DNA of 64,000 nt, taken from Flexilinea sp. (lineage in GTDB: Bacteria > Chloroflexota > Anaerolineae > Anaerolineales > Anaerolineaceae). Numbering within the stretch: position 1 is the first letter of the stretch; each line of letters opens with the position of its first letter. Below the pieces are notes generated by a model. The model was not told the origin of the DNA and searched no databases. It saw nothing but the letters and a program-made list of their open reading frames with translations. Made by a program: the position numbers and the translations under genes. The stretch spans positions 5,937 to 69,936 of the forward strand of contig JASBYO010000002.1 in NCBI GenBank assembly GCA_029983925.1, written 5' to 3'. Shown one piece after another: positions 25,418-60,919 of the stretch.

Positions 25418-25451
25418 AGCTACCCTTTTATACTAATCCTATCTGAATTTA

Positions 25452-36599: not shown

Positions 36600-36601
36600 A
36601 G

Positions 36602-36901
36602 ATGAAAAATAATACCTGGCTGCTGATCCTGATCGTTATTGTTTTGGCGCTGCTGCCGATTTTTCTGACGAAAGGCGCCGAATTCGAAGGCGCGGACGTT
36701 ATCGCCGAAAACGCGATCGGAGAGATCAACCCTGATTACGAACCCTGGGCGGAATCGCTTTGGGAACCGCCGTCCGGCGAAATCGAAAGCCTTCTCTTCG
36801 CGCTTCAGGCCGCGCTCGGCGCCGGTTTTATCGGCTATTATCTCGGAAATAAAAGCGGTCAAAATAAAAACGCCGGTTCCAAAAAACCGAAATCGTCATA
36901 A
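36602..36901 (+). CDS. cbiN: Cobalt transport protein CbiN
   Basis: 99 aa, two TM segments flanking FEGADVIAE...PWAESLWEPPSGEIESLLFALQAALGAG. Confidence 0.9.
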   Translation: MKNNTWLLILIVIVLALLPIFLTKGAEFEGADVIAENAIGEINPDYEPWAESLWEPPSGEIESLLFALQAALGAGFIGYYLGNKSGQNKNAGSKKPKSS

Positions 36902-38920: not shown

Positions 38921-38932
38921 GAGTTATGCATC

Positions 38933-41576: not shown

Positions 41577-42328
41577 GCGGATCCATTCGAATCATCGGCA
41601 CCGGGCCTGGCAATCTATCCTGGTGCGCCCCCGGCGCAATCTCCGCACTCGAAAAATCGACGGTGATTGTCGGCTATCAGACCTACCTGGACCAAATCGC
41701 GGAACTCTGCCCGCAGACGCCGCGTTACGGGAACGGGATGCGCCGGGAAGTCGAACGGGCGAAAAAAGCGATCGCTTTCGCCCGCGAGGGTCATCAAGTC
41801 GCCGTCGTCTCCGGAGGCGACGCCGGCATCTACGGCATGGCGGGGCTGGTACTGGAACTCCTCTGTCTGGATGATACAGCGATCGAGGTCGAAGTCCTGC
41901 CCGGGATCACGGCGCTGACCGCCGCGGCCGCGCTGCTCGGCGCGCCGTTGATGAGCGATTTCGCCGCGATCAGCCTGAGCGACTACCTCGTCCCGAGCGA
42001 AACGATTTTCCGAAGGCTCAGAGCCGCCGCCTTAGCCGATTTCGCGATCTGCTTATATAATCCGACCTCGGCGAGACGGCGCGGCATTTTTGAAACGGCG
42101 TGTTCGATCCTGATCGAAACGCTCGGCGAAGCGCGCCCGGTCGGGCTTGTGCGCGCAGCTTTCCGCCCGGCTCAGTCGGTCCAAATCGGTCTGCTGAGCG
42201 AGCTGAGCCGGATGGAACTGGGGATGGATTCGATCGTGATCGTCGGAAACAGCGCGACGAAAATCGCGCGCGGCCGCATGATCAGTTCGCGCGGGTACCG
42301 CCTGACGGAGAATTCGGCGAATTTTTAA
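41573..42328 (+). CDS. cbiH: Cobalt-precorrin-3B C17-methyltransferase
   Basis: IRIIGTGPGN...VIVGYQTYLDQI...VVSGGDAGIYGMAG. Confidence 0.85.
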   Translation: MSGSIRIIGTGPGNLSWCAPGAISALEKSTVIVGYQTYLDQIAELCPQTPRYGNGMRREVERAKKAIAFAREGHQVAVVSGGDAGIYGMAGLVLELLCLDDTAIEVEVLPGITALTAAAALLGAPLMSDFAAISLSDYLVPSETIFRRLRAAALADFAICLYNPTSARRRGIFETACSILIETLGEARPVGLVRAAFRPAQSVQIGLLSELSRMELGMDSIVIVGNSATKIARGRMISSRGYRLTENSANF

Positions 42329-42349
42329 CGGACTGGAGAAAACTGCGAT

Positions 42350-42970
42350 ATGAAACCGGAGGAAATTGAAAAGGAAAGTTTCCGGATCATCCTGAACGAG
42401 ATAGGGCCTCATTCGTTCAGCGAACGGGAACTCCCCATCGTTCAGCGCGTTATTCACGCTACCGCTGATTTTGAATATCGGGAGCTGATCCGTTTTTCGC
42501 CGAACGCGATCGATGCGGCGATCCGCGCGATCCGTTCCGGCTGCCGCGTATATTCGGACGTGCGCATGATCGAAGCCGGAATCGGCCGCCCGCTGATGGA
42601 ATCGTTCGGCTGCGTTTCCGGCTGCTACGTGAACGACGCGAACGTCGCCGAAACGGCCAAACGCAACGGGAAAACACGTTCAGAAACGGCGATGCGCCTA
42701 ATCGGAGCGGATTTGGAAAACGCCGCCGTCCTGATCGGAAACGCGCCGACAGCGCTTTTTGAAGTCCTCCGTCTTTACGCGGAAGAGAGGATCCGGCCGG
42801 CGTTCGTCGTCGGCGTTCCGGTCGGTTTCGTCAACGCCGCCGAATCGAAGCTGGCGCTAACCGAAAGCGGACTCGATTTCATCAGCGTCAGCGGACGGAA
42901 AGGCGGTTCAACCGTCGCCGTCGCGATCTTCAACGCGCTGCTGAGGCTGGCGAAACGGAGCTGCGAATGA
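42350..42970 (+). CDS. cbiC: Cobalt-precorrin-8 methylmutase
   Basis: IEKESFRII..., VIHATADFEY, GNAPTALFE. Confidence 0.9.
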   Translation: MKPEEIEKESFRIILNEIGPHSFSERELPIVQRVIHATADFEYRELIRFSPNAIDAAIRAIRSGCRVYSDVRMIEAGIGRPLMESFGCVSGCYVNDANVAETAKRNGKTRSETAMRLIGADLENAAVLIGNAPTALFEVLRLYAEERIRPAFVVGVPVGFVNAAESKLALTESGLDFISVSGRKGGSTVAVAIFNALLRLAKRSCE

Positions 42971-44109
42971 GAACCGGTTTCTCGACCAGCGCCTGCGCCG
43001 CGGCGGCGTCCGCCCCGGTGTCGTCCACCGCGGCCCCGGCCCCCTTACCCGCCCCCCCCGCGCCCGCCGCCGCGCTGCGCGCGCTGATCAGCGGCGAAAC
43101 CGTTACGGACGTCGTAATCAACCTGCCGACGCGTCGCGACGTTCCGTTTCAAATCGCGCGCTGCGAATTTCTGAACGGCGGCGCGCGCTGCGGCGTCATT
43201 AAAGACTCGGGCGACGACCCCGACGTGACCAACGGAATCGAAATTCAATCGATCGTCAGCCGCGGTCACAGCGGTACGATCGAGATTCGCGGCGGCGTCG
43301 GCGTCGGCGTCGTGACGCTCCCCGGACTTCCGGTCGCCGTCGGCGAAGCCGCGATCAACCCCGGACCGCGCCGCCTGATATTGCAGACGCTGCGCGCCGA
43401 ACTCGCGCATCTCGGCGTCGAGGAGGGAACCGGATTTATCGCGACGATCTGCGTCCCGGACGGCGAACGCGTCGCGCTTGAAACGATGAACCCGAAATTA
43501 GGGGTCGTCGGCGGGATTTCGATTTTAGGAACCGACGGGCTGGTTCATCCGTATTCGCTGCCTGCGTTCCGAACGAGTATCTTTTACGAACTGCGCGTCG
43601 CGAAAGAAAACGGCTGCCGAACGGTCGGGCTGGCGACCGGGAAACGCTCTGCGCAATACTTGAAAAACGCCTTGAACGAAACGAACGACTTAGCGATCGT
43701 CAACGTCGGCGACGAAATCGGCTTTCCGATCGACCGCGCGATCCGGCTCAAATTCTCCGGAATCGAGATCGGCGGAATGATCGGGAAATTATCGAAACTG
43801 GCTCAGGGGCGTTTCCAGACCCACGTTCAGGAAGGAGAAGTCGATTTCGACTTCTTAGCCGCTCTCGCCCGCCGGGCCGGCGCGCCGAATGACGTCTGCG
43901 AGAAAATTCGAACCTGCCGAACGGCGCGCGCCGTTCAAAACCAGCTCGAAACGCAGGGTATCCGTCTCGAACCGGTTTTAGCCGAGCTTGCCGCCGGTCA
44001 CGTTTGGAACCGCTGCGGCGGGAAAATAAACGTCGGCGTTTGGCTTTTTAACCTGAACGGCGAATTGTTAGCCGCGGCGGCGAAAGGAGCGGCGATTGAA
44101 CCCGAATAA
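42967..44109 (+). CDS. cbiD: Cobalt-precorrin-5B C1-methyltransferase (with Ala/Pro-rich N-terminal insertion)
   Basis: MRTGFSTSACAAAAS..., DSGDDPDVTNG, INPGPRR, GGISILGTDGLVHPYS. Confidence 0.85.
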   Translation: MRTGFSTSACAAAASAPVSSTAAPAPLPAPPAPAAALRALISGETVTDVVINLPTRRDVPFQIARCEFLNGGARCGVIKDSGDDPDVTNGIEIQSIVSRGHSGTIEIRGGVGVGVVTLPGLPVAVGEAAINPGPRRLILQTLRAELAHLGVEEGTGFIATICVPDGERVALETMNPKLGVVGGISILGTDGLVHPYSLPAFRTSIFYELRVAKENGCRTVGLATGKRSAQYLKNALNETNDLAIVNVGDEIGFPIDRAIRLKFSGIEIGGMIGKLSKLAQGRFQTHVQEGEVDFDFLAALARRAGAPNDVCEKIRTCRTARAVQNQLETQGIRLEPVLAELAAGHVWNRCGGKINVGVWLFNLNGELLAAAAKGAAIEPE

Positions 44110-45328
44110 AATAGACGTTATCGGCGTCGGCGTTGACGGCCGCGCCGGATTAAGCGCGGCGGCGCGGGAAGCGATCCTGAACGCGGATCAACTTTGGGGG
44201 ACGGAACGTTTCTTACGCGAGTGGGACGATTTCGGCGGAACGAGCGTCCCGTTTGAAAATCCGCTCAAAGCGCAGCTTCGGCGGCTCGCCGATCGCGGGA
44301 ACGCGCGAATCGCCATCCTCGCTTCCGGCGACCCCGGTTTCTTCGGGATCGCCGCGACGCTGCTGGAGATTCTCCCGGCGGAAGAGTTAGCGATTCATCC
44401 GAACGTTTCAAGCCTTCAAGCCGCTTTCGCCCGCGCCAAAATCCCCTGGCAGGAAGCCGTCTTTACCAGTCTCCACGCGCGCCCGTTCATGGAAGTCATC
44501 GGGCTGATCCGGCGCAGCGCGACGGTCGGGATGCTGACCGATCCGCGCGAACGCCCGAACCGAATCGCCGAACGGCTGCTCGAAGCCGGCGTTGCCGACT
44601 GTGAAGCGATCGTCTGCGAAAACCTGGGAACGGCCGGGGAAAAGCTGACGAAAGGAACGCTGGCGGAACTGACGAAGATAACGTTCGCGCCCCTGAACGT
44701 CATGATTCTGCGTCAGGGTCATGACTTTAAGCCGTACAGCGTCGGCGTCCCGCGCGACGATTCCGCCTATCTCCATCGCTCCGGCATGATTACCAAACGC
44801 GATATCCGCCTGCTCACGCTCGATCGGCTTTCGCTCCGGGCTGACGATACCGTCTGGGACATCGGCGCCGGAAGCGGCGCCCTATCGATCGAAATCGCCG
44901 AGCGCTCCTGGCGCGGGCGCGTTTACGCGATCGAAAAGGACCCGGCCGCGCTCGATCATCTCCGTCAAAACGTCGGCAATCACGGCGCGCTTAACGTCGA
45001 AATCGTCTCGGGCCGCGCGCCCGAAGCGCTCCTGCCGCTACCCGCGCCGACGGCCGTTTTTATCGGCGGAAGCGGCGGGGAACTCGAAGCGATTTTATCA
45101 ACCGTGTTCGAACGCGTTGAAGAACGCTGCCGCCTGGCCGCGAATTTCACGCTCCTCGAAAACCTCGTCCGGACGTTAAAGCTGCTGCGCGACCGCGGCC
45201 TCGAACCGCAGCTCAGCGCGGCCGGCTTTTCCTACGCGAAACGGATCGGATCGGGAACGCGTTTCGAACCGAACAATCCGATTTATATCCTTAGCTGCGA
45301 AATCGGAGGCGCGTCCCATGCGGCCTAA
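44096..45328 (+). CDS. cbiET: Cobalt-precorrin-6B/7 methyltransferase-decarboxylase fusion CbiE-CbiT
   Basis: N-terminus: IDVIGVGVDG...ILASGDPGFFGI (CbiE). C-terminus: MITKRDIRLLTL...VWDIGAGSGALSIE (CbiT). Confidence 0.85.
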   Translation: MNPNKIDVIGVGVDGRAGLSAAAREAILNADQLWGTERFLREWDDFGGTSVPFENPLKAQLRRLADRGNARIAILASGDPGFFGIAATLLEILPAEELAIHPNVSSLQAAFARAKIPWQEAVFTSLHARPFMEVIGLIRRSATVGMLTDPRERPNRIAERLLEAGVADCEAIVCENLGTAGEKLTKGTLAELTKITFAPLNVMILRQGHDFKPYSVGVPRDDSAYLHRSGMITKRDIRLLTLDRLSLRADDTVWDIGAGSGALSIEIAERSWRGRVYAIEKDPAALDHLRQNVGNHGALNVEIVSGRAPEALLPLPAPTAVFIGGSGGELEAILSTVFERVEERCRLAANFTLLENLVRTLKLLRDRGLEPQLSAAGFSYAKRIGSGTRFEPNNPIYILSCEIGGASHAA

Positions 45329-46040
45329 ACTGATTGCCGTCGGCGTCGGACCGGGCGCGCCGGACTTGCTGACGCTCCGGGCCGTTGAAAAAATCCGTTC
45401 GGCGCGAGCGATCGCGTATACGGCGAACCGGCGCGGCGAAAGTTACGCGCGAACGACAGCGTCGGGCTGGATCAGCCCGGAAGCGGTCGAAATCCCGCTG
45501 CCGTTCTCCATGTCCCCCGATCGGGCGGCGCGGCTCCAGGCGCGTCGGGAGGCGGCGCGGCGGATCCGGAGCGCGCTCGCGCTCTACGGAGAAATCGTTT
45601 TTCTTACTGAGGGCGACCCGCTCTTGTACAGCACCTGGCAGCACCTGCTGCCGGCAGTCGCGCGCAATTGTGAAATCGAGATTTGCCCCGGGATCAGCGC
45701 CATGAGCGCGGCCGCCTGCGCTTCTGAATTTCCGTTGGCGATCGAAGAGGAAACGCTTATCGTCGCCTCCGCCGCTTCGGCGCTGCCGCGGCTAAGCGAC
45801 TGGCTCGCGCAAGGGGAAACGGTCGTCCTTTACAAAGCCGCCAAAAGACTGGGCGAGATCAGCTCGATCCTCGACGCGGCCGAAACCCCGATCCGAGCCA
45901 TACTGGTCGAACGCTGTTCCGATTCGAGCCAGAGAATCCTGACGGATCCGAAAAGCTGGAACGACAGCGAACGCGCCTACTTTACGATCGTATTCCTGAA
46001 AGCGGAGCGGCCGGAAAAGGAGACAGCGCATGAAAATTAA
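45318..46040 (+). CDS. cbiL: Cobalt-precorrin-2 C20-methyltransferase
   Basis: KLIAVGVGPGAPDLLTLRA..., LTEGDPLLYSTW. Confidence 0.85.
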   Translation: MRPKLIAVGVGPGAPDLLTLRAVEKIRSARAIAYTANRRGESYARTTASGWISPEAVEIPLPFSMSPDRAARLQARREAARRIRSALALYGEIVFLTEGDPLLYSTWQHLLPAVARNCEIEICPGISAMSAAACASEFPLAIEEETLIVASAASALPRLSDWLAQGETVVLYKAAKRLGEISSILDAAETPIRAILVERCSDSSQRILTDPKSWNDSERAYFTIVFLKAERPEKETAHEN

Positions 46041-47418
46041 CCGAATTCTTATCGCCGCGCCCGCGAGCGGATCCGGAAAAAGCGTGCTCAGCGCCGGGAT
46101 CATGGCGCATTTTGCCGACGAGCTGCCGGTTCAAGGGTTTAAGATCGGTCCCGATTATATCGACCCGATGGTTCATGCCGCCGCGACCGGCCGTCCCGCG
46201 CGTAATTTGGACGGGTGGATGCTGAACGATTCGGCGAATCGGCGCATCTTTTTCGACGCGGCAAAATCGGCGGAATTATCCGTCGTCGAAGGCGTGATGG
46301 GCCTTTTCGACGGTTACGGCGCCGACCCGTTTAATGGCAGCACGGCGGCGGCGGCCATGCTGTTGGCCTGCCCTGTCGTTTTGGTTCTCGACTGCGCGAA
46401 GCTTTCGGGGACCGCCGCCGCGATCGTAAAAGGCCTTGATTCGTTCGATCCGCGGCTGCGGATTGCCGGAGTCATTTGCAACCGCGTCGGGAGCGCGAAT
46501 CACGCCGCCTGGCTTAAAGAAGTCATCGAACGGTACGCGAACGTCCCGGTACTCGGCTGCGTCCCCAAATCGGAAGCGCTCAAACTTCCCGAGCGGCATC
46601 TCGGACTCGTCACCGTCGTCGAAGATCCCGCCCGCGCGCAGCGATTCATCGCCGAAACCGCGTGTCTTCTGCGCAAATATCTCGATTTTACGCGCATGAT
46701 GGAAATCGCCGCCGCCGCGCCGGATTTTCCCGAACCGAAAGAGCGGACCGCGGAAAAAAGCGCGCCGGCCGTCCGAATCGGCGTAGCGGACGATCAAGCG
46801 TTTTGTTTCTATTATGCCGATAATCTGGACGCGCTGAGCCGCGCCGGCGCGGAAATCGTCCCGTTCAGCCCGCTGAGGGATCGCCGCCTTCCCGACAGGA
46901 TGGACGGTCTCTATTTCGGCGGCGGTTATCCCGAACTATACGCGAAACGCTTAGCCGCGAATCAGCCGCTCCTGAACGAAATCCGCGCGCTGCGTCGGAA
47001 AGACCTGCCGATATACGGCGAATGCGGCGGGTTGGTTTACCTGAGCGAAGGGCTGGAGACGGCCGACGCCTTTTATCCGCTGGCGGGCGTCGTCCCCGGC
47101 CGCTGCCGGATGAGCGCCCGGCGCGCGATGGGTTACCGAACGGTACGCGTTTTAAAAAGCAATCTGCTGTGCGAAGCCGGCCGGACGCTGCGCGGCCACG
47201 AGTTCCATTATTCCGAATGGGAGCGCGGGAACGGAAACGCCGCGCCGGCCTATGAGATCCGACCGCGCAGCGATAACGCGCCGCCGGGAACGGACGGCTG
47301 GACGGACGGGAATCTGTTAGCCGCGTATATCCATCTGCACTTCGCGCAAAATCCGCAGCTTGCCAAAAATTTTGTACAAACTTGTTTGAAATGGAGTCAA
47401 AAGAAAAACGAATTATGA
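46030..47418 (+). CDS. cbiA: Cobyrinate a,c-diamide synthase
   Basis: ILIAAPASGSGKS, GPDYIDP, GVMGLFDG, and the C-terminal glutamine amidotransferase motif YGECGG. Confidence 0.9.
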   Translation: MKINRILIAAPASGSGKSVLSAGIMAHFADELPVQGFKIGPDYIDPMVHAAATGRPARNLDGWMLNDSANRRIFFDAAKSAELSVVEGVMGLFDGYGADPFNGSTAAAAMLLACPVVLVLDCAKLSGTAAAIVKGLDSFDPRLRIAGVICNRVGSANHAAWLKEVIERYANVPVLGCVPKSEALKLPERHLGLVTVVEDPARAQRFIAETACLLRKYLDFTRMMEIAAAAPDFPEPKERTAEKSAPAVRIGVADDQAFCFYYADNLDALSRAGAEIVPFSPLRDRRLPDRMDGLYFGGGYPELYAKRLAANQPLLNEIRALRRKDLPIYGECGGLVYLSEGLETADAFYPLAGVVPGRCRMSARRAMGYRTVRVLKSNLLCEAGRTLRGHEFHYSEWERGNGNAAPAYEIRPRSDNAPPGTDGWTDGNLLAAYIHLHFAQNPQLAKNFVQTCLKWSQKKNEL

Positions 47419-48569
47419 AACGAACCGCTTATACAATCCGATTTATCCTGGCGATCCTTTTTTCGGCGCTGATCTTCTCCGCGCGGCCCGCCGCCGCGCA
47501 AACCGAAACCACGGCCGAAATCAAGTACGCGAAAGCGTTCACGATCGAGAACCGCGACGGCTATAAAATTTTAACGGTCGTCCGCCCATGGCGAAATGCG
47601 GACCGGGAATTCCAATACCTGATCGTTCCGAAAGGGAAGCCTATCCCGGACGGATATCTAAACGCGCAGATCATCCAGGTTCCGATCGAAAAAATCGCCG
47701 TTTTGGCCGCGACCCATTTCGCTTATCTGAACCGATTGGGAATGAACGAAAAACTGATCGCCGTCGCCAACCCGGAATATATCTATTCCGAACAGGTTCA
47801 TAACGGCGTAGACAGCGGAACGATCGCCGCCGTCGGGAACGGCCCGGATATCAATTTGGAAAAACTGCTCAGCGCCGAACCCGAACTGACGACGACGTTC
47901 GCGATGGGGAAATCGACGAAAGACGATTATCAGCAGCTGATTGACAAAGGCATCCCGACCGTGGTTTTCTCGGATTATATGGAAGAATCGCCGTTAGGAA
48001 GAGCGGAATGGCTTAAGGTCATGGCGCTTTTCTTCGGACAGGAAGAAGAAGCCGATCGAATTTTCGCCGATATCGAACGCCGCTACACCGAATTAGTCGA
48101 ACTGACGCGCGATTTGGACAAAAAACCGAAAGTCCTGATGGGGTTCCACATGAACGGGAAATGGAACGTTCCGGGCGGGAAGAGCGTCCAGGCGGCGTAC
48201 GTCCGCGACGCCGGCGGCGATTACCTTTGGGCGGACGACGAAACGTCGGGGCGGTTCCCGCTCAGTTTCGAAGCCGTCTTAGAAAAAGGCGCGTCCGCCG
48301 ATTTCTGGTTCGACCTCTCGCTGTCCTGGACCGGAATTGACGACCTGATAAATTCGGATCCGCGTTACGCGTCGATTCAGGCGTACGCTGACCGACGCGT
48401 CTTCAACAACAACCTGCAGCTCAGCCCATGGGGTGCGAACGCGTTCAACGAAACCGGACTCGTCAACCCCGACATTGTCCTCTCCGACCTGATCCGCCTG
48501 ATGCATCCGGACCTGCTCCCCGATCACGAACCGGTTTACTATCGCAATTTGAGCGCCGATGGCTTCTAA
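47415..48569 (+). CDS. Cluster-A periplasmic binding protein (BtuF/FecB-like; corrinoid or siderophore uptake)
   Basis: ATGA overlap with the cbiA stop. Signal peptide FILAILFSALIFSARPAAAQ. Followed by FecCD permease and ATPase genes. Confidence 0.8.
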   Translation: MKRTAYTIRFILAILFSALIFSARPAAAQTETTAEIKYAKAFTIENRDGYKILTVVRPWRNADREFQYLIVPKGKPIPDGYLNAQIIQVPIEKIAVLAATHFAYLNRLGMNEKLIAVANPEYIYSEQVHNGVDSGTIAAVGNGPDINLEKLLSAEPELTTTFAMGKSTKDDYQQLIDKGIPTVVFSDYMEESPLGRAEWLKVMALFFGQEEEADRIFADIERRYTELVELTRDLDKKPKVLMGFHMNGKWNVPGGKSVQAAYVRDAGGDYLWADDETSGRFPLSFEAVLEKGASADFWFDLSLSWTGIDDLINSDPRYASIQAYADRRVFNNNLQLSPWGANAFNETGLVNPDIVLSDLIRLMHPDLLPDHEPVYYRNLSADGF

Positions 48570-49629
48570 TCGGGACGATTCTCGATCTTTGCAGTATCCG
48601 CGCCGATGGGTTTGGATCGTACTGGGCGCCGCGTTGGTCCTCTGTTGGCTCGCCGATTTATTCCTCGGCTCGGTTCGAATCCCTTTCCAGGACGTCATCC
48701 GGGCGCTGAGCGGCGCAGAAGGGCTGTCGAATAATTGGGGCGTGATTATCCGGGATTACCGCCTGCCGAAATCGATCGCCGCGATGTTTTCCGGCGCGGC
48801 GCTTTCCGTCGCCGGGCTGCAGATGCAAACACTGTTCCGAAACTCGTTGGCCGATCCGTTTATCTTGGGAATTTCGTCCGGCGGGAACCTCGGCGCGGCG
48901 ATCGTAATCCTCGTCGGCGCGGGCGGAAGCTTCCAATTTCTCGGGAAATTCAGCGCCATCGGGAACCTCAACCTGATTGCGGCGGCGTCTCTCGGCGCGT
49001 CCGCCGTTTTTATCCTCGTGATGACGCTTTCGCGACGCGTCCACGCCACAACGCTCCTGATCACCGGCGTTCTCGTCAGCTACATCGTGAACGCTTTCGT
49101 ACGCGTCCTCGTTCAGTACGCCTCGCCCGACGCGGTTCAAGCGTATCTGTCCTGGACGTTCGGAAGCTTCGCCGGCGTGACCCGAGAGCGGCTGACCGTT
49201 TTTGTCCCGGTCGTCAGTCTTGCGCTGCTGCTGTCGGCGCTGACGATCAAACCGCTCAACGCGCTCCTCTTAGGCGAACTCCACGCGCGCAGCGTCGGCA
49301 TCGATCCGAGCCGGTCCCGGCGGCTGATCATCCTTGTCGCGTCGATTTTAACCGGCGCCGTTACCGCTTACTGCGGGATTATCGGATTCATCGGTATCGC
49401 CGTTCCGCACCTCTGCCGCAGTCTTTTCGCGGATTCGGATCACATGGTTCTGTTGCCGGGTTGTATTCTCGTCGGCGCTTGCGTCGCGCTGATCGCGGAC
49501 ATGATTTCACAAGTTTTCGGCGGCGCTTTCCTGCTGCCGCTGAACAGCGTTACCGCCCTGATCGGCGGACCGGTGATCCTGTTCGTGATCCTGAAAAAAC
49601 GGAACCTCAGCCGGGAATTCGACGCATGA
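48559..49629 (+). CDS. FecCD-family ABC permease (BtuC-like)
   Basis: Polytopic. Contains the typical ADPFILGISSG and GIIGFIGIAVPHL motifs. Confidence 0.9.
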   Translation: MASNRDDSRSLQYPRRWVWIVLGAALVLCWLADLFLGSVRIPFQDVIRALSGAEGLSNNWGVIIRDYRLPKSIAAMFSGAALSVAGLQMQTLFRNSLADPFILGISSGGNLGAAIVILVGAGGSFQFLGKFSAIGNLNLIAAASLGASAVFILVMTLSRRVHATTLLITGVLVSYIVNAFVRVLVQYASPDAVQAYLSWTFGSFAGVTRERLTVFVPVVSLALLLSALTIKPLNALLLGELHARSVGIDPSRSRRLIILVASILTGAVTAYCGIIGFIGIAVPHLCRSLFADSDHMVLLPGCILVGACVALIADMISQVFGGAFLLPLNSVTALIGGPVILFVILKKRNLSREFDA

Positions 49630-50396
49630 ACGGCGCCGCGCTCAACACGACCGACCTAAGCGTCGGATATCACGGACGGAAGCGGACCGCGCTGCTGCGC
49701 GGACTGAACCTGAACTTGCGGCCGCGCCGCCTGACCTGCCTGATCGGGCAGAACGGCGTCGGGAAATCGACGCTGATCCGAACGCTGGCCGGATTACAGA
49801 AGCCGGTCGGCGGCGCCGTTTCGATTCACGGCGCGGACTTGGAACTCGTTCCGCCGGCGGAGCGCGCTCGTCTGGTCAGTATCGTTTTACCCGGCGCGGA
49901 TCACTACGGCAATTTAAAATGCGAACAAATCGTTCAGCTCGGCCGGCTCCCATACGCAAACTGGCTCGGACAATTGAGCCTGCATGACCGTAAAATCGCC
50001 GCGGATTCCTTAGAGAAAATCGGCGCGTCCGCCTTCGTCGGACGCCGGTTCGCCGAACTCAGCGACGGCGAACGTCAAAAAATTCTTGTCGCCCGCGCGT
50101 TGGCGCAGCAGACGCCGATCCTGATCCTCGACGAGCCGACGGCGTTTCTGGATTGGACGAACCGGCTCGAAATGCTGATATTATTAAAAGAAATCGCCTT
50201 CAGGGAGGAAAAATCGATTCTGCTCTCGTCGCATGATCTTGATTTAGTTATGCGCTTCGCGGACGATCTCTGGGTTATCGACGACGATCGCGCCGTTTTC
50301 AGCGGAACGAAAACGGAGGTCCTCGAAAGCGGCGTCCTGAAAAACGCGTTTTCAGGAAAATATCTGCGCTATCTTGAAGATAGCCGGGCAAGTTGA
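49626..50396 (+). CDS. ABC ATPase (BtuD/FepC-like)
   Basis: ATGA overlap with the permease stop. Walker A GQNGVGKST, signature LSDGERQK, Walker B ILILDEPTAFLD. The upstream part of the 553-aa track ORF is an out-of-frame overlap. Confidence 0.9.
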   Translation: MNGAALNTTDLSVGYHGRKRTALLRGLNLNLRPRRLTCLIGQNGVGKSTLIRTLAGLQKPVGGAVSIHGADLELVPPAERARLVSIVLPGADHYGNLKCEQIVQLGRLPYANWLGQLSLHDRKIAADSLEKIGASAFVGRRFAELSDGERQKILVARALAQQTPILILDEPTAFLDWTNRLEMLILLKEIAFREEKSILLSSHDLDLVMRFADDLWVIDDDRAVFSGTKTEVLESGVLKNAFSGKYLRYLEDSRAS

Positions 50397-54231: not shown

Positions 54232-54270
54232 AACTGAAAACCCAAGGAAACATCGGGGAAAACGAAGGTT

Positions 54271-54311
54271 CCGGGAGAAAGCGGTCCGCCTCTTTCTCCC
54301 GGATTTTATTT
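54271..54311. terminator. Bidirectional terminator between the ABM gene and gnd
   Basis: Perfect 11-bp stem CCGGGAGAAAG / CTTTCTCCCGG, followed by ATTTTATTT on the plus strand. Confidence 0.7.
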
Positions 54312-54319
54312 AATCTAAA

Positions 54320-55771
54320 TCAGACGACATACATCGACGCCGACGTCGACCCGCCTTCGCCCGTCCAATTGGTATGGAAGAACTCTCCGCGCGGGCGGTC
54401 CGTCCGCTCGTAGGAATGAGCGCCGAAGTAATCCCGCTGCGCCTGAATCATGTTCGCCGGCAGGTCCGCGCTGCGATAGCCGTCGTAGTAAGCCAGCGCC
54501 GCCGACAGAGCCGGAACCGGCAGCCCGTTCAGAACCGCCGCCGCCACGACGCGCCGCCAGCTCTGCTGCGCGTTTTCGATCGCGGTCCTGAAATAATCGT
54601 CGAGAAGCAGGTTTTGAAGCCCGGGGTTCTTATCGAAAGCGCGCTTGATATCGCCGAGGAAAACCGATCGGATAATACAGCCGCCGCGCCACATCAGCGC
54701 GATATCGCCGAATTTCAAATCCCAGCCGTACGTCCGCGCCGCCGCGCGCATCAGGGCGTAGCCCTGCGCGTATGAAACGATCTTCGAAGCGAAAAGCGCT
54801 TTCCGCAAATCCTCAATCATCGCCGCCTTATCGCCGTCGAACGCGGCGGCGTCCGGACCATGGAGCAGCTCGGCGGCGGCGGCGCGCTCTTCCTTAATCG
54901 CGCTCAAACAGCGCGCGAAAACGGCTTCCGCGATCAGCGTCAGCGAAATTCCTTCGTCGAGCGCCGCGATCGCCGTCCATTTTCCGGTACCTTTCTGACC
55001 GGCGGCGTCAAGGATTTTATCGATAACTTCCTCGCCCGCTTCGTCTTTATAAGCGAGAATTTTTCCCGATATTTCGATCAGATAACTGTCCAGCTCGGTT
55101 TGGTTCCAATCCGTAAACACCGCCGCCATCTCGTCGTTCGTCATCTTCAGCGCGCCGCGCATGAAATGATACGCTTCGGAAATCAGCTGCATATCGCCGT
55201 ATTCGATCCCGTTGTGGACCATCTTGACGAAATGACCCGCGCCGCCGCTCCCGACCCATTCGCAGCACGGCGCGCCGTCCTCAACTTTAGCGCAGATACC
55301 CTGGAAAATCGGTTTGACGAGTTCCCATGCCGCCGGAGAACCGCCCGGCATCATCGACGGACCGCGCAAAGCCCCCTCCTCGCCGCCGGAAACGCCGCAC
55401 CCGATATACCGCAGCCCCTTTGATTCGACATATTTCGCGCGCCGTTCCGTATCGGGAAAATGGGAATTGCCGCCGTCGATAATTACGTCGCCGGGTTCCA
55501 GCAACGGAATCAGTTTTTCAATAAACTCGTCGACCGGCTTCCCCGCCTTAACCATCATCATCACCTTGCGCGGTTTCTTCAACTGCGAAACGAGTTCTTC
55601 CAACGAGTACGCGCCCCGGATCAGCTTCCCTTTCGCCCGGCCTTCGATAAATTTCGCGACTTTTTCCGTCGAACGGTTATAAACCGAAACGCCGAACCCT
55701 TTGCTTTCCATGTTGATCACGAGATTCTCGCCCATGACCGCCAAGCCGATCAATCCGATATCCGATTTCAT
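54320..55771 (-). CDS. gnd: 6-phosphogluconate dehydrogenase, decarboxylating
   Basis: DIGLIGLAVMGENL, IIDGGNS, GVSGGEEGA, MVHNGIEYGDMQLI. Start at MKSDIG (the ORF extends 10 codons further, to 55801). Confidence 0.9.
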   Translation of the reverse strand: MKSDIGLIGLAVMGENLVINMESKGFGVSVYNRSTEKVAKFIEGRAKGKLIRGAYSLEELVSQLKKPRKVMMMVKAGKPVDEFIEKLIPLLEPGDVIIDGGNSHFPDTERRAKYVESKGLRYIGCGVSGGEEGALRGPSMMPGGSPAAWELVKPIFQGICAKVEDGAPCCEWVGSGGAGHFVKMVHNGIEYGDMQLISEAYHFMRGALKMTNDEMAAVFTDWNQTELDSYLIEISGKILAYKDEAGEEVIDKILDAAGQKGTGKWTAIAALDEGISLTLIAEAVFARCLSAIKEERAAAAELLHGPDAAAFDGDKAAMIEDLRKALFASKIVSYAQGYALMRAAARTYGWDLKFGDIALMWRGGCIIRSVFLGDIKRAFDKNPGLQNLLLDDYFRTAIENAQQSWRRVVAAAVLNGLPVPALSAALAYYDGYRSADLPANMIQAQRDYFGAHSYERTDRPRGEFFHTNWTGEGGSTSASMYVV

Positions 55772-55831
55772 TGTCCGCGTTAATCCTTCCTTTAGTTTCA
55801 TCCGGTTCCCGTTTTCTTCCTGAGCCGGTTT

Positions 55832-56905
55832 TCAGCGCTGAACGCGCGCGTTTCCGGCGTAAATCGCCCAGACCTGATCTTCGTCTATCGGCTGGGCGTA
55901 ATCGGTCAGGCAGGTCGCCGCCATCGCGCCGGTCGCCCATCCGAACCGGAGCCATTTTTCCGGCGTCCAATTTTTCAGGATTCCGTATAAAAGACCGCCG
56001 ACGAAACCGTCGCCCCCGCCGATCCGATCCAAAACCGGGATCGCCCGCGGCTCGACGACTTCCCACCCCGCGTCCGTATACAGCAGCGCGCCCCAAAGAT
56101 GTTCATTCGCGCTGATTACTTCCCGCAGCGTATTCGCAAACACTTGCGCATGCGGATAAGCCTCCTTAACGCGGGAAATCATCTCCTTAAAACCGTCGAT
56201 CTTCGCGCCGATTTCCTTACCGCCCGCGTCCGGCCCCGTCACGCCTAACGCCAGCTGAAAATCTTCTTCATTCCCGATCAGAATATCCGCCAGCGACGCA
56301 ATTTCATGGAATATCCCGCGCAGCTCCTCTTCGCGGTTCTTCCAGAACGACGCGCGATGATTCAGATCGAACGAGACCAGCGTCCCGTTCGCGGCGGCGG
56401 CGCGCGCGACTTCCAGGCAGAACTCGCCCGTTTCCGGCGATAACGCCGCGATCAGTCCGGATAAATGCACGATCGCCGCGCCTTCCCTGACGAAAATACG
56501 CTCGACGTCGAAATCCCGGATATTCAGCGCCCGCCCGACTTCGCCCGAACGGTCGTTCCAAACGCGCGGACCGCGCAGCCCGTAACCGCTGTCGGCAAGG
56601 TTGAATTGGTGACGGTACCCCCAAGGGCCGCCCTGATCGACTTCCGGACCTTCATAAGAGATGTTGCGCTTGCGGAGCTCGCCTTTGATAAACTCGGCGA
56701 TCGGGCTGTCCTTGACGAACGTCGTCAGCAGCTTCACGTTTTCGCCCAGCGCGGCCGAAATATTCGCGACGTTCGATTCCGCGCTCGTCGAATGCATGAC
56801 GAACAGATCCGACGTATGAACCGGCTGCCGATCGACGGGCGTCAGCCGGACGCCCATGCTGGTCGGAGTCACCAATCCGTATTTATAATTTTCTCTCAAT
56901 CGCAT
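55832..56905 (-). CDS. PfkB-family sugar-acid kinase (KdgK-like; substrate uncertain)
   Basis: MGVRLTP...STSAESNVANISAALG N-terminal pattern, and DRIGGGDGFVGGLLYG (the PfkB ATP/anion-hole motif). Confidence 0.8.
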   Translation of the reverse strand: MRLRENYKYGLVTPTSMGVRLTPVDRQPVHTSDLFVMHSTSAESNVANISAALGENVKLLTTFVKDSPIAEFIKGELRKRNISYEGPEVDQGGPWGYRHQFNLADSGYGLRGPRVWNDRSGEVGRALNIRDFDVERIFVREGAAIVHLSGLIAALSPETGEFCLEVARAAAANGTLVSFDLNHRASFWKNREEELRGIFHEIASLADILIGNEEDFQLALGVTGPDAGGKEIGAKIDGFKEMISRVKEAYPHAQVFANTLREVISANEHLWGALLYTDAGWEVVEPRAIPVLDRIGGGDGFVGGLLYGILKNWTPEKWLRFGWATGAMAATCLTDYAQPIDEDQVWAIYAGNARVQR

Positions 56906-56935
56906 CTGAAAATATCCTTTCTGTCGTTCATCTGC

Positions 56936-57754
56936 TCAGACCCCGGAAAAAGCGGAGAAACCGCCGTCGATCGGAACGACGATCCCGGTAACGAAGTTTG
57001 ACGCCGGCGAAATCAGGTACAGCGTCGCGCCCAATAGTTCGTCGAATTCGCCGAAACGCCCCATCGGCGTATGCCCGACGATCTGCTGCCCGCGCGGCGT
57101 CAAATTCGTCGTGCCTTTTTCGTAGAGGAGGTCGTGATTCTGATTGCCGACGAAAAAACCGGGCGCGATCGCGTTGACGCGAATCCGTTTCGAAAAATTA
57201 AGCGCCAAATCGACCGCTAACCATTGGGTAAAATTATTAATCGCCGCTTTCGCCGTCGAATACGCCGGAACGCGCGTTAGCGGCTGAATCGCGCTCATGC
57301 TCGAAATATTCAAGATAACGCCCTCCCCGCGCTCAGCCATCGCTTTTCCGAAGACCTGGCTCGGCAACACCGTCCCGAGCAAATTCAGATTCAAGACCCA
57401 TTGAAACGCGTCGGCGGGAATATCGAAAAAATTCCGATCCGCGTTCGTCGTCGCCGCCGGTTTATTCCCGCCCGCGCCGTTAATCAGGATGTCGACCTGT
57501 CCCCAACGCGCCGTTACCGCCGCGCAGGCGGCTTCGATAGCGCTTTTTTCCAACACATCGCATCCGAACGCCTGCGCCTCGCCGCCGCTTCCGCGAATCT
57601 CCGCCGCTACGCGTTCCGCGACTTCAGGGAACAAATCTAAGATAGCAACTTTCGCGCCCAACTCGGCGCACATTTTTGCCTGCGCGCCGCAGATAACCCC
57701 GCCGCCGCCGGTCACGACGACAACTTTCCCCTGAATATCAAAACTCGGTACCAT
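56936..57754 (-). CDS. SDR-family oxidoreductase, D-mannonate/fructuronate reductase-like
   Basis: KVVVVTGGGGVICG, NGAGGNKPAATT, and catalytic SS...YSTAK. A long-loop SDR subtype commonly encoded with uxaC. Confidence 0.75.
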   Translation of the reverse strand: MVPSFDIQGKVVVVTGGGGVICGAQAKMCAELGAKVAILDLFPEVAERVAAEIRGSGGEAQAFGCDVLEKSAIEAACAAVTARWGQVDILINGAGGNKPAATTNADRNFFDIPADAFQWVLNLNLLGTVLPSQVFGKAMAERGEGVILNISSMSAIQPLTRVPAYSTAKAAINNFTQWLAVDLALNFSKRIRVNAIAPGFFVGNQNHDLLYEKGTTNLTPRGQQIVGHTPMGRFGEFDELLGATLYLISPASNFVTGIVVPIDGGFSAFSGV

Positions 57755-57806
57755 GAATAAATTCGCTCCCTTTCAAAAGAATAAAACCCGACGATCCGCC
57801 GACGGG

Positions 57807-59093
57807 CTAAAATTCGCCGCGTTCGCTCTCGAGACGGTACAGCGTTTCGCCGGCATACGGAACAACCAAAATCCCCTCGTCTTCGCGATTCATCAAAGCG
57901 TCGATATCGAGCGCGTCGGGATCGCGATAACCGAGCGCCAGCGCCGCGCAGCGTTCCGCCGGGATCGCCGTCGCCAGAACGACGCTGATCCGTTTCTTTT
58001 CAACGCCGTTTTCCATCGTTCCCAAACCGGCAACATGGCTCGAATGGGCGATGACGCCCCAGGGTTCGTTCCGATATTTATCCCAGTCGGCGAGGAAATA
58101 ATCGCGGCAGTGATAACCGATCTTGTTCAAATAACGGTCATGCGTCAGCGAAATATCGCGAATATGCTTTCCGTAGATGATCAGCTCGCCGCCGTCCTCG
58201 ACGACCGGCTCCAACTTATACATTCCCTTTCCCGCGGTCCAAATCTCGTCGTACAGATGGGGCATACAGGCGACGACCAACCGATAACGGCGCGATTTAT
58301 AAACGACGTTGACCTTCTTCGAGAGCGCGACCGCCGCTTCCCAACTCGGGAGCGGATCGCCGCCGAAAAACCCGTAAACGCCTTCCTTCCGATTCACGGT
58401 GCAAAGATACAGTTTCGGCGTCGGGATCAGCGCCGCCGCGCGTTCGATCAGGCGGCGCTGCGGCGTATCCTGTTTCCCGATCGTCGAAAAACAGGTTTGC
58501 ATCGCGCCGATCCAATGCGTCGTGTTGGTAAAATCGGCGCCGCTGATCCCCGGGAAGAAATATTTCGTCCCGCCGGAATAACCCATGACCTCATGCGGGA
58601 AAACCGGCCCCAAGACAACGATCAGGTCATAATCCAGGACCAGCTTATTGATCTCAATCTTGACGTCGCGATCGATCGTTCCGTGCGTCAGCGGAATTAA
58701 TTCATCTTTTCCGACCGTTCCGATCCGAACGAAGGTAGCAGGATCTTGCCAATCATGGTTCATAACCTTCATTCCTGCGTACGTTCCGTTCAGCTCCGCA
58801 ACGCTGACGCCCAGATGGGCCGCGATCAATTCCTCGCTCATCGGCTGATGCGTTCCCAGCGCGATCAGGAAGTCCAGCTTCCGCGTTTTCGGATACACGA
58901 TTTCATGAAAAAACCGAAAGAACATCGGCAGCGGCATCGTTCGCGTATGATCCGGGATCAGCGCCAAAACGCGTTTTCCGCCGATCGGATTCGCCTCGAA
59001 AATTTCCGTAAAAATCGCGCGGATTTCCGCTTCGTTTAGCAGATTATCCGCCGTCTCGCGCCCGTACCCAAAGACTTTTCCAGCGACTTTCAT
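57807..59093 (-). CDS. LarA-family (nickel-pincer-nucleotide dependent) 2-hydroxyacid racemase/epimerase homolog
   Basis: LIPDHTR, ALGTHQP, PHEVMGYSGGTKYFFPGISG and TTHW correspond to the LarA His/His/Lys/His constellation. Start set at MKVAGK. The track ORF extends to 59258, overlapping uxaC. Confidence 0.75.
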   Translation of the reverse strand: MKVAGKVFGYGRETADNLLNEAEIRAIFTEIFEANPIGGKRVLALIPDHTRTMPLPMFFRFFHEIVYPKTRKLDFLIALGTHQPMSEELIAAHLGVSVAELNGTYAGMKVMNHDWQDPATFVRIGTVGKDELIPLTHGTIDRDVKIEINKLVLDYDLIVVLGPVFPHEVMGYSGGTKYFFPGISGADFTNTTHWIGAMQTCFSTIGKQDTPQRRLIERAAALIPTPKLYLCTVNRKEGVYGFFGGDPLPSWEAAVALSKKVNVVYKSRRYRLVVACMPHLYDEIWTAGKGMYKLEPVVEDGGELIIYGKHIRDISLTHDRYLNKIGYHCRDYFLADWDKYRNEPWGVIAHSSHVAGLGTMENGVEKKRISVVLATAIPAERCAALALGYRDPDALDIDALMNREDEGILVVPYAGETLYRLESERGEF

Positions 59094-59152
59094 CAAAATA
59101 TCACGCGCCTTTCCGTCAAGCGTTAAATCCCGAACCGAAACCGTCCGAACGA

Positions 59153-60577
59153 CTAAAGCCCATAGATCGCTTTCGGCTGGTCGTACGCCAACAGCCGCGC
59201 CAAACCATGAGCATCTTCCATACCGAAGAAGCTGCGAACGACCATCTTCGCCAGCCAATTCGACAGCGCGCGCCGGAAGACGTCGTGCCGGGCCGGAATC
59301 GACGGAAACGCGCGCGTATCGTCGATAAACCCGCTCAGGTTATACAGCCCCGCCGTTTCGACGACGGAATCAAAAAAGCGGTTGATGCCGTTCCAACTGT
59401 CGTTAAACCACCACGGCGGACCGAGCCGCAGCGCCGGATAATGGCCCGCCAAAGGCGCCAACTCGCGCGAATACACCGTTTCGTCAAGCGTGAATAAAAC
59501 GAGTTTGAAATTCGGATGATTCCCGAATTCGTTTAATAACGGCCGTAAATTCCGGGTAAATTCGGTCCGGACCGGAATATCGCAGCCTTTGTCGGCGCCA
59601 AAGCGGTCGAAAATCTGCCGGTTATGGTTGCGGAAAACGCCCGGATGAAGCTGCATGACGAAACCGTCTTTCAGGCTCATTTCAGCGAATTCCATGAGCA
59701 TATGACCGCAGAATTTCTTCTCGTCGGATTTATCCGCGCCGCCGTTCATCGCGCGCGCGAAAATCGCTTCCAATTTCCGCTTCGGAAGCCGTTTCGGCGC
59801 CGGTTTATAAACGCCGTGATCCGTCGAAACGGCGCCCATCGTCTTGAAAAATTCGCGCCTCCGGACCAGCGCGGCGCGAAAATCGTCGAACGTCGTAATT
59901 TCGATCCCGGAAGCGTTCGATAAACGTTCGATCTCCAATCGAAATCCCGCCGACCGCAGCGCCATGACGCTGTCCGGGCGGAAAGTCGGACGAACGCGAT
60001 CGGTCCAGCCGCCGGCGCGAATCGCCTGATGGGCCGAGAGCGAATCGGCCGCGCCGTCCGTCGTACAAATCGTTTCAATATTAAAACGATCCATCAGCGC
60101 GCGCGGACGGAACTCCGGCGACGCTAATTTTTCAACCAGTTCATCGTAGAGCCGGTCAGCGTTCTCGCGGTCGGGAATCTCGTCAATACCGAAAACAAAC
60201 TTAAATTCATGCCCCAGCCAATTATACGAAGCGGTCCCGACCAGAAGATGAAAATTTTCGCAGAAAAGCCGCCAAATTTTACGATGATCCGTTTCAACCG
60301 TTTCGGAGCTGTCCGAACGGAGCGGAATCCCGAAATCGGCTAAATCCAGCCCCTGCGAATAAAAAACGCGGAAGACATAATGATCCGGGAGAACCAACAT
60401 CTCGGCCGGATCGCCGAAACCCGCGGCCGGATCGGCGAATAAATTCGCATCGACATGTCCATGAGGACTAACGATCGGGAGGGCGCGGATCCGTTCATAA
60501 ATTTCGAGCGCCGTTTTTTTCTGCAACGGGTCAGGATCAAAAAACCGGTCATCCGGGAAAAGCCATTTCTTAGGCAT
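59153..60577 (-). CDS. uxaC: Glucuronate isomerase
   Basis: FLFPDDRFFDPDP...LPIVSPHGHVD, and ~470 aa length as in UxaC. Confidence 0.9.
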   Translation of the reverse strand: MPKKWLFPDDRFFDPDPLQKKTALEIYERIRALPIVSPHGHVDANLFADPAAGFGDPAEMLVLPDHYVFRVFYSQGLDLADFGIPLRSDSSETVETDHRKIWRLFCENFHLLVGTASYNWLGHEFKFVFGIDEIPDRENADRLYDELVEKLASPEFRPRALMDRFNIETICTTDGAADSLSAHQAIRAGGWTDRVRPTFRPDSVMALRSAGFRLEIERLSNASGIEITTFDDFRAALVRRREFFKTMGAVSTDHGVYKPAPKRLPKRKLEAIFARAMNGGADKSDEKKFCGHMLMEFAEMSLKDGFVMQLHPGVFRNHNRQIFDRFGADKGCDIPVRTEFTRNLRPLLNEFGNHPNFKLVLFTLDETVYSRELAPLAGHYPALRLGPPWWFNDSWNGINRFFDSVVETAGLYNLSGFIDDTRAFPSIPARHDVFRRALSNWLAKMVVRSFFGMEDAHGLARLLAYDQPKAIYGL

Positions 60578-60865
60578 GGAGTCTCCTATACGAATGAATT
60601 ATGCCGCTAAGACCGTAACGGACAGCCAACGTAATATCACGCCGCAGGATACGATCGCTCAGCGCGAAGGAATATCACCAGTCTGAATTTATTATAAGCC
60701 AAATTGAAAATAAAGCGCAGGCGGGAACGTTTTCCCTGATAATGAATGACGTTTCTTTCAGATATCGGGGAGATTTACGCGACGGATACAGAGCGGGACC
60801 CTTAGGATATGAAATAATTTCTGAAAATACAGAGACATTTCAAGGCTCCGGATCAAGCGCGAATC

Positions 60866-60899
60866 AAAAAAAGAGAGCGGGAAATACCGACCCGCTCTC
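60866..60899 (-). terminator. Rho-independent terminator of the methyltransferase gene
   Basis: Perfect 9-bp stem GAGAGCGGG / CCCGCTCTC, followed on the minus strand by TTTTTTT. Confidence 0.75.
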
Positions 60900-60919
60900 C
60901 GAGAAAAAAGGGACGCTTG

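Follow-up and report, generated by a model that had tools for sequence, protein, structure and literature searches.

How could D-glucuronate be degraded by an operon that carries the isomerase of the classical uronate pathway but neither its dehydratase nor its aldolase? The question is raised by a five-gene operon of Flexilinea sp. (Chloroflexota), which lies within a stretch of 64,000 nucleotides from contig JASBYO010000002.1 (assembly GCA_029983925.1); this whole stretch is called the window below. On its minus strand, positions 54320-60577 hold five intact co-directional open reading frames (ORFs) in the order uxaC, LarA homolog, a gene for a short-chain dehydrogenase/reductase (SDR), a gene for a PfkB-family kinase, and gnd. 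We propose, at a probability of roughly 75%, that the operon encodes a redox-neutral bypass by which D-glucuronate would enter the pentose phosphate pathway instead of passing through UxuA, KdgK and Eda. The basis of this proposal is the observed family membership of the proteins, their intact catalytic residues and the conserved linkage of the genes, from which we predict what the SDR, the epimerase and the kinase act on.

The operon and its predicted route

The operon and its flanking elements are as follows.

60578-60919, minus strand: upstream intergenic region of 342 nt, including the uxaC leader (sequence reading, promoter scan)
59153-60577, minus strand: uxaC, glucuronate/galacturonate isomerase, 474 aa (PF02614, E 2e-79; NF002794)
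57807-59093, minus strand: LarA homolog of the GntE branch, Desguin group 19 (GntE1-like), 428 aa (PF09861 Lar_N; 4NAR match)
56936-57754, minus strand: SDR, predicted fructuronate reductase / D-mannonate oxidoreductase, 272 aa (PRK08277)
55832-56905, minus strand: PfkB-family sugar-acid kinase, predicted hexonate 6-kinase (D-gluconate or D-mannonate), 357 aa (PF00294)
54320-55801, minus strand: gnd, decarboxylating NADP-dependent 6-phosphogluconate dehydrogenase, 493 aa, or 483 aa from 55771 (TIGR00873)
54270-54303, no strand assigned: GC-rich hairpin of 12 bp where gnd and an ABM-domain gene converge (folding)

Five co-directional genes with gaps of 30-60 nt had been described in an initial annotation of this DNA, and ORFs and family models agree with this layout. 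The measured gaps are 59, 52, 30 and 30 nt along the operon; the last one becomes 60 nt if gnd begins at its second ATG, which is the start called on a 99%-identical contig (L002). A near-identical contig of 82 kb is present in SRR33398681. For the LarA homolog the ATG at 59093 was taken as start codon, an alternative TTG further upstream overlapping uxaC. All five proteins align end to end with their families and thus none of them resembles a pseudogene.

The terminator that had been placed at 54271-54311 is indeed represented by a hairpin, the extent of which was corrected to 54270-54303. It is found directly past the gnd stop codon, in an 88-nt stretch with a folding energy of -29.3 kcal/mol (z = -2.05). 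It is likely a bidirectional terminator, with a weak T-tract (AACCUUCGUUUUCC) towards gnd. At the other end, the supposed promoter region of 340 nt proved to be a spacer of 342 nt, but its promoter content is restricted to a weak match: a sigma-70-like site (TTGAAA-18-AATTAT at 60843-60814) agrees in 9 of 12 positions, which is weak evidence, and promoter and terminator scans of the region gave sites no more numerous than in shuffled sequence. The spacer opens with a terminator-like hairpin and T-run at about 60866-60899, which belongs to the co-directional methyltransferase gene upstream of uxaC. An Rfam scan of the uxaC leader matched no Rfam family or riboswitch.

Three of the five proteins pass curated cut-offs. 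UxaC reaches 503 bits on the NCBIfam equivalog NF002794 (cut-off 387), the SDR 368 bits on the subfamily model PRK08277, 'D-mannonate oxidoreductase' (cut-off 281), and Gnd 762 bits on TIGR00873 (cut-off 427), in addition to the Pfam domains 6PGD and NAD_binding_2. No equivalog model matches the LarA homolog or the kinase. The SDR is thus a predicted fructuronate reductase (D-mannonate oxidoreductase); its PDB search returned one structural-genomics entry and 7-alpha-hydroxysteroid dehydrogenases and is uninformative on the substrate.

In the proposed route, UxaC would isomerise D-glucuronate to D-fructuronate, which the SDR would reduce to D-mannonate. The LarA homolog, a putative nickel-pincer-nucleotide (NPN) enzyme of the GntE1 group, would invert C2 and the PfkB kinase would phosphorylate C6, these two steps together yielding 6-phosphogluconate. 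Gnd would convert the latter to ribulose-5-phosphate, CO2 and NADPH and so recover the reducing equivalent that the SDR had consumed. Uronate catabolism would be redox-neutral up to ribulose-5-phosphate, a property that has been stressed with a view to obtaining ethanol or lactate by fermentation of biomass rich in pectin and glucuronoxylan (Valk et al., PMC6978723). The operon as it stands would serve glucuronate rather than galacturonate because uxaE is absent from the window. This route from glucuronate via fructuronate, mannonate and 6-phosphogluconate to ribulose-5-phosphate had already been suggested in the initial annotation, and it is supported by the branch to which the epimerase belongs, by gene linkage across phyla and by the separate clade of the kinase.

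The lack of uxuA and of a KDPG aldolase gene, first noted for the operon, holds for the whole window. When single reference proteins from Pfam-annotated loci were used in tblastn searches (E <= 1e-12, at least 50% coverage), no relative of UxuA, Eda, canonical KdgK, FGGY kinase or UxaE was found in the 64 kb, and with references for PFK-like proteins and long-chain UxuB included, only the five operon genes were retrieved. UxuA families and the Aldolase family (PF01081) were likewise absent from the Pfam annotation of the operon flanks on contig L002 (about 10 kb per side) and from Pfam scans of 20 further ORFs of the window. Among the known gluconate kinases, the search of the window covered the FGGY type, P-loop GntK/IdnK relatives being outside its scope.

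The LarA homolog and the order of the middle steps

The LarA homolog matches the Pfam family Lar_N (PF09861, E 2e-21). It has four PDB matches (4NAR, 6D6Z, 2YJG and 5HUQ), of which 4NAR is the top one (E 1e-53), far above malate and lactate racemases. 4NAR represents TM0442 from Thermotoga maritima, also named GntE2 or LarAH20, which is an NPN-dependent D-gluconate 2-epimerase in vitro (Desguin 2020, PMC7583248). When compared with the sequences of Dataset S2 from that study, the LarA homolog is 40% identical to GntE1 from Corynebacterium glutamicum (LarAH19) and 43-47% identical to other group-19 proteins (from Roseiflexus, Nostoc, Truepera and Planctomyces), with six group-19 proteins in the range of 40-47%. 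Identity drops to 33% for GntE2 (group 20) and to 26-31% for group 18. The closest named relative, from a Flexilinea sp. metagenome-assembled genome (MAG), shows 56% identity.

The best NCBIfam match is the model for LarAH group 18 ('putative hexonate epimerase', NF052594), on which the LarA homolog reaches 159 bits at a cut-off of 500, and genuine group-18 proteins from two other loci (L087 and L086) reach 685 and 639 bits. Membership in group 18 was rejected on this score and on the identity of 26-31%.

From the closeness to group 19 and the failure of the group-18 model we therefore conclude that the LarA homolog is of the group-19 (GntE1) type. The initial annotation had left open its position among the characterised clades; it falls into the gluconate 2-epimerase (GntE) branch. 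Residues D48, R51, H82, H167, K177, H193 and K289 align with D72, R75, H108, H174, K184, H200 and K298 of LarA (Lactobacillus plantarum numbering), which include the catalytic His108 and His174, the NPN-tethering Lys184 and the nickel ligand His200, besides Asp72, Arg75 and Lys298. All seven are invariant in 14 homologs. The protein also carries the signature D-R-H-H-E-V-K-H-W-T-x-K of the GntE branch (groups 18-20), which is defined by Glu-Val/Ser after the second catalytic His, a Trp in helix alpha-11 and a small residue in alpha-14, and here reads H-E-V and W-T-A-G-K. The substrate-pocket pattern is G-I-A-S-S-H-A, compared to G-L/I-A-S-T-H-x in group 19. We thus predict an NPN-dependent C2 epimerase which acts on D-mannonate/D-gluconate or on their 6-phosphates.

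The choice between free and phosphorylated substrates is equivalent to the order of the two middle steps. A fixed order, with the epimerase acting before a gluconate kinase, had been assumed at first and is not established. We rate this order, which is that of the Thermotoga model, at a little short of an even chance. It is favoured by the model itself and, by analogy, by the in vitro activity on free mannonate of GntE1, GntE2 and LarAH15, the only enzymes for which gluconate 2-epimerase activity has been demonstrated. GntE1 interconverts D-mannonate and D-gluconate with NPN (PMC7583248). The three enzymes have kcat values of 59-197 per second, and their Km values for mannonate are high: 120 mM for GntE1, 17 mM for GntE2 (with a kcat of 197 per second; PMC7583248), and 9.4 mM.

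These Km values can also be taken to favour a reversal of the two steps, a variant of the same route in which the PfkB protein would be a D-mannonate 6-kinase and the LarA homolog a 6-phosphomannonate/6-phosphogluconate 2-epimerase. The reverse order has been shown biochemically in extracts of Lactobacillus suebicus, which did not convert free mannonate to gluconate and which, upon addition of ATP, formed 6-phosphomannonate and then 6-phosphogluconate; the genes are unassigned (Valk 2020, PMC6978723). Phosphorylated substrates are mentioned in neither of the two LarAH papers. The commonest gene order in loci with group-18 epimerases, SDR-PfkB-LarAH-Gnd, matches the reversed order of reactions, although gene order is weak evidence, and one of the loci with a window-type kinase (L086) has an FGGY kinase alongside this PfkB kinase. 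On the other hand, the three GntE-branch enzymes do epimerise free mannonate at the turnover given above, the Thermotoga model couples GntE with a gluconate kinase, and no phosphate-binding site is identifiable in the sequences. In balance, we consider the reversed order rather unlikely for the window operon.

The kinases of the window type may, at similarly low odds, be the long-sought D-mannonate 6-kinases, and the adjoining group-18 and group-19 LarA homologs the 6-phosphomannonate 2-epimerases of Valk et al. If this were true, the millimolar Km would mark free mannonate as a non-native substrate, and these would be the first NPN enzymes that act on phosphorylated sugar acids. Two recombinant proteins would bear both on the native substrate of GntE1-type enzymes and on the genes for mannonate kinase and 6-phosphomannonate epimerase.

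In the paper of Valk et al., the Thermotoga epimerase gene is called 'TM0042' and described as aldose 1-epimerase-like, while it is TM0442 that codes for a LarA homolog (PMC6978723). The L. suebicus 'homolog' which they tracked (A0A0R1W1H9) may lie outside the LarA family, and the hunt for the 6-phosphomannonate epimerase gene may have begun from the wrong protein.

The kinase and the loci of its relatives

The kinase has PfkB (PF00294, E 7e-21) as its sole Pfam match, and the PfkB motifs DRIGGGDGF (catalytic GxGD) and GNEEDF (NxxE type) are visible in the alignment. It does not match the FGGY_N and FGGY_C domains of the known FGGY-type gluconate kinases (GntK). Its placement on the bypass, as suggested in the initial annotation, is strengthened by its position in a clade separate from KdgK. 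We predict that it is a hexonate 6-kinase which acts on D-gluconate or D-mannonate.

KdgK was the assignment suggested by the top database matches. Among solved structures the closest is that of T. maritima KdgK (2AFB, E 7e-31), the top PDB match, the best NCBIfam matches are models for 2-keto-3-deoxygluconate (KDG) kinases, and annotation pipelines label the orthologs '2-dehydro-3-deoxygluconokinase'. The operon could accordingly be a mosaic around the classical pathway, with an ordinary KDG kinase, with uxuA and eda encoded elsewhere, and with the LarA homolog and gnd as passengers or in gluconate metabolism. However, the scores on the KDG-kinase models are all far below the cut-offs (90 against 440 bits for NF041332, 51 against 400 for NF040938, 22 against 400 for NF052444). 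The kinase is 28% identical to TM0067 and 26-30% identical to the true KdgKs of T. maritima (2AFB) and Geofilum, whereas the 345-aa Geofilum KdgK is 52% identical to TM0067. This Geofilum protein reaches 514 bits on the aldolase/kinase fusion model, on which the window-type kinase scores 162 bits. The KdgK motif GGAEANVA is changed to TSAESNVA, and there is a clade-specific insertion. Orthologs with 65-73% identity occur on Chloroflexota-like, Bacteroidota, Firmicutes and Planctomycetota contigs; the best 120 database matches are all at least 69% identical, and the named ones are from Oscillospiraceae, Marinilabilia, Geofilum, Pirellulaceae and Capillibacterium.

The gene neighbourhoods point in the same direction. 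At least 579 metagenome stretches carry a window-type kinase. We analysed the best 80 loci, with kinases 65-73% identical, of which 26 are flanked by 4 kb or more on either side. These 26 well-flanked loci contain a group-18 LarAH in 21 cases, Gnd in 20, an SDR in 19, UxaC in 12 and UxaE in 11. A separate KdgK is present in 10 of them, Eda in 8 and UxuA in 3, so that the classical and the bypass branch can coexist, which in itself would be compatible with the mosaic. But it is KdgK that adjoins Eda in such loci, while the window-type kinase adjoins LarAH and Gnd. Because of the separate clade, the linkage to LarAH and Gnd and the coexistence with a true KdgK, we assign the window-type kinase, as judged from sequence and gene context, to the LarAH/Gnd branch; it is not KdgK. 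KdgK was rejected as the primary assignment on clade separation and on this coexistence, and we consider the mosaic improbable.

Geofilum rhodophaeum (L087) exemplifies the coexistence, with the order UxaC-PfkB (345 aa, KdgK)-Aldolase (Eda)-SDR-PfkB (359 aa, window type)-LarAH-Gnd-DctPQM-LacI-UxaE. In this locus and in seven others (L090, L109, L110, L118, L153, L160 and L164) a classical set (UxaC, KdgK, Eda, sometimes UxuA) and a bypass set (SDR, PfkB, group-18 LarAH, Gnd) are found side by side, so that in those organisms the pathway forks at mannonate, which has two fates. In GCA_016841445.1 the order is FGGY-Gnd-SDR-LarAH-PfkB.

A group-19 LarAH paired with a window-type kinase was found only in the window and its 99% twin among 83 group-19 loci. 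On the contig of a relative (ERR14964773_7382, 46.8 kb; L003, identical to L085), with a LarAH of 72% and a kinase of 82% identity, the genes are split. Some 10 kb downstream of uxaC-LarAH-SDR, the kinase ortholog is flanked by a Mannitol_dh-family (UxuB-type) gene and by gnd, and the intervening region codes for a GH3 glycosidase and for an ABC sugar transporter that has two binding proteins. Compared with this arrangement, the window operon looks compacted, as if the second reductase had been lost together with transporter and glycosidase.

Group-19 neighbourhoods, known systems and the remaining window

Group-19 relatives of the LarA homolog were surveyed with one genome per species, and at least 590 species-level genomes carry one. 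Neighbours were counted from the best 80 loci of the scan, which span Chloroflexota, Acidobacteriota, Verrucomicrobiota, Planctomycetota and other phyla. All ORFs were clustered, antisense artefacts were removed, and representatives were named by Pfam and re-scored by tblastn with single references. The counts refer to neighbours within 8 kb in 82 genome loci with relatives that are 44-56% identical, and are as follows.

SDR: 51 of 82
Gnd: 26 of 82
UxaE: 18 of 82
PFK-family protein: 14 of 82
HAD-like protein: 14 of 82
UxaC: 9 of 82
FGGY kinase: 8 of 82
PdxB-like dehydrogenase: 7 of 82
second PfkB clade: 4 of 82
UxuA, Eda or KdgK: 0 of 82

In the subset of 40 loci that extend 5 kb or more to either side, an SDR occurs in 31 and Gnd in 16. 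The presence of Gnd within 8 kb in 40% of the loci corresponds, by our estimate, to a roughly hundred-fold enrichment, Gnd being single-copy. Across lineages the kinase slot is filled by three unrelated families (PFK-like, FGGY and PfkB), which is expected of a pathway step and not of a chance neighbour. A Flexilinea MAG has the order uxaC-uxaE-LarAH-SDR-gnd. The co-occurrence of these genes in relatives, a check that followed from the initial annotation, thus revealed LarAH, SDR, Gnd and kinase as linked across phyla.

Several points weigh against the bypass. In about 17 of the 40 well-flanked group-19 loci, both gnd and a kinase are missing from the neighbourhood, and the family may thus also serve other roles. 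For GntE1, the closest tested relative, mannonate was regarded by the authors as a doubtful native substrate (PMC7583248). The gnd gene could be merely the housekeeping copy of the organism. No uronate transporter or regulator is present within the five-gene operon, and the genes for synthesis of the NPN cofactor (larB, larC, larE) were not found in the 64-kb window by the Pfam annotation of the L002 flanks and the scans of 20 further ORFs. Finally, the absence of UxuA and Eda refers to the window and to single references.

Some of these points would also fit a LarA homolog that acts on another sugar acid, an aldarate or another hexonate epimer pair, with no link between mannonate and 6-phosphogluconate: glucarate/mannarate was proposed by the GntE1 authors in view of the Km of 120 mM (PMC7583248), many group-19 loci are devoid of gnd and kinase, and some have a molybdopterin oxidoreductase, a PdxB-like dehydrogenase or a HAD-like protein as neighbours; but the commonest neighbours (SDR of the mannonate-oxidoreductase type, Gnd, UxaE, UxaC) fit mannonate and 6-phosphogluconate and not aldarates, and no cluster of aldarate dehydratase or uronate dehydrogenase is among the recurrent neighbours, so that we regard this as very improbable.

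Some group-19 loci have a different composition. A variant operon (L038, L039, L044, L062, L034, L049, L052 and L054, with LarAH at about 10001-11250 of the full-length loci) codes for an SDR, a HAD-like protein, a PdxB-like 2-hydroxyacid dehydrogenase (DUF3410), a group-19 LarAH, a PFK-family protein and Gnd. Its HAD-like protein (297 aa) has no Pfam match and carries the motif DSDGCAFD. The PFK-family protein reaches 375 bits on the PPi-PFK subfamily model NF010675, and a PFK-like gene occurs in 12 of the 40 well-flanked loci. This gene may encode a hexonate kinase of yet another, unrelated family; alternatively, it may be the sign of a different pathway which uses phosphorylated 2-hydroxyacids. 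In five other loci (L008, L014, L016, L030 and L032), which are acidobacterial with L030 labelled Heliobacteriaceae, genes for a molybdopterin oxidoreductase and for a membrane protein of the fatty-acid-hydroxylase family come after LarAH.

The bypass wiring had been considered undescribed as an operon. It is, however, already in the literature. Rodionova 2012 proposed that GntE, GntK and Gnd connect the hexuronate isomerase pathway to the pentose phosphate/phosphoketolase pathway, with the T. maritima operon aldH-pelB-gnd-uxaRED-gntEK as basis, as outlined in passages of PMC3750489, PMC6978723 and PMC7583248. The epimerase activity was demonstrated in 2020, a variant of the wiring was proved biochemically by Valk 2020, and SDR, 6-phosphogluconate dehydrogenase, a ribokinase-family kinase and UxaC are listed as neighbours of group 18 in Table S1 of PMC7583248.

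The UxaR-regulated T. maritima operon (aldH-pelB-gnd-uxaR-uxaE-uxaD-gntE-gntK) follows the same logic with the same set of functions: reactions of the hexuronate isomerase pathway supply mannonate, from which a LarA-family NPN epimerase, a kinase and Gnd lead on to ribulose-5-phosphate. All five functions of such a Thermotoga-type bypass are encoded by adjacent genes in the window, with kinase and reductase from other families or subfamilies. The window epimerase is a member of group 19 instead of group 20 and shares only 33% identity with GntE2. The window kinase is of the PfkB family, in contrast to T. maritima GntK (TM0443), which we take to be of the FGGY kinase family; FGGY kinases occupy the kinase position in other loci. 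The SDR is of the PRK08277 type, and 1VL8, presumably the structure of TM0441, is not among its PDB matches at E <= 1e-30. The window operon has uxaC inside, and it is devoid of uxaE and of a regulator.

GntE1 (LarAH19) from C. glutamicum belongs to the same LarAH group, shares 40% identity and has the same signature residues. The published context of its group consists of LarE, LarB and LacI, labelled 'uronic acid metabolism' (PMC7583248), whereas the window and the 82 loci show SDR, Gnd, UxaE or UxaC, and kinases. Group-18 modules such as that of G. rhodophaeum (SDR-PfkB-LarAH-Gnd) have the kinase clade (65-73% identity), SDR subfamily and Gnd in common with the window and form the same four-gene module, but their epimerases are from a different group. 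The hybrid isomerase/phosphoketolase pathway of L. suebicus (Valk 2020) likewise leads from mannonate to 6-phosphogluconate, followed by decarboxylation by 6-phosphogluconate dehydrogenase, and is redox-neutral from uronate to ribulose-5-phosphate. It differs in that a mannonate kinase acts before a 6-phosphomannonate 2-epimerase and that the candidate kinases are GntK-like, not PfkB. With the classical Ashwell pathway (UxaC-UxuB-UxuA-KdgK-Eda) the first two steps are common, and the kinase has a KdgK-like fold, but the window has the LarA homolog and Gnd instead of UxuA and Eda.

Three aspects appear to be undescribed in the literature that was searched: a PfkB clade, distinct from KdgK, as the pathway kinase; the context of uronate and 6-phosphogluconate for the GntE1 group, for which aldarates had been proposed; and the pairing of a group-19 epimerase with a window-type PfkB kinase. 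A search for a PfkB-family gluconokinase or a cloned mannonate kinase returned nothing beyond Valk 2020. The LarAH-SDR-Gnd-kinase module is widespread: group-19 relatives occur in at least 590 genomes and the kinase in at least 579 metagenome stretches, so that the module is no peculiarity of Thermotoga. The survey supplies a concrete physiological context for the poorly understood GntE1 group, and it singles out as pathway kinase a PfkB clade which is at present mis-annotated as KDG kinase.

Elsewhere in the window, a cobalamin riboswitch (35589-35732, 57.7 bits) opens the region 35589-47418 on the plus strand. A probable cbiMNQO-type transporter, as read from the translations, is encoded downstream of it. 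Genes for anaerobic cobalamin biosynthesis (BtuR/CobO, CbiK, a methylase-CbiG fusion, CbiC, CbiD, CbiA) come next, and an ABC importer of the corrinoid/iron type is found at 47391-50396. The cbiMNQO-type transporter is probably for cobalt, whereas the LarA homolog needs nickel.

Two ORFs on the minus strand, 252-1778 (508 aa) and 7638-9086 (482 aa), have no Pfam match at E <= 1e-4. The latter adjoins a lyase of the DHDPS/NanA family (9172-10080) and a peptide-type ABC transporter. The sole tRNA of the window is a tRNA-Ser (GGA) at 7375-7461 on the minus strand. The regions 24224-26609 and 29149-30950, both on the minus strand, code for a carbamoyltransferase-like protein with OTCace domains and, adjacent to it, an M20 peptidase, which together resemble a ygeW/ygeY pair, as well as for two nearby subunits similar to succinyl-CoA ligase. 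In the beta-like subunit, the match to the ATP-grasp_2 model is confined to the C-terminal part of that model.

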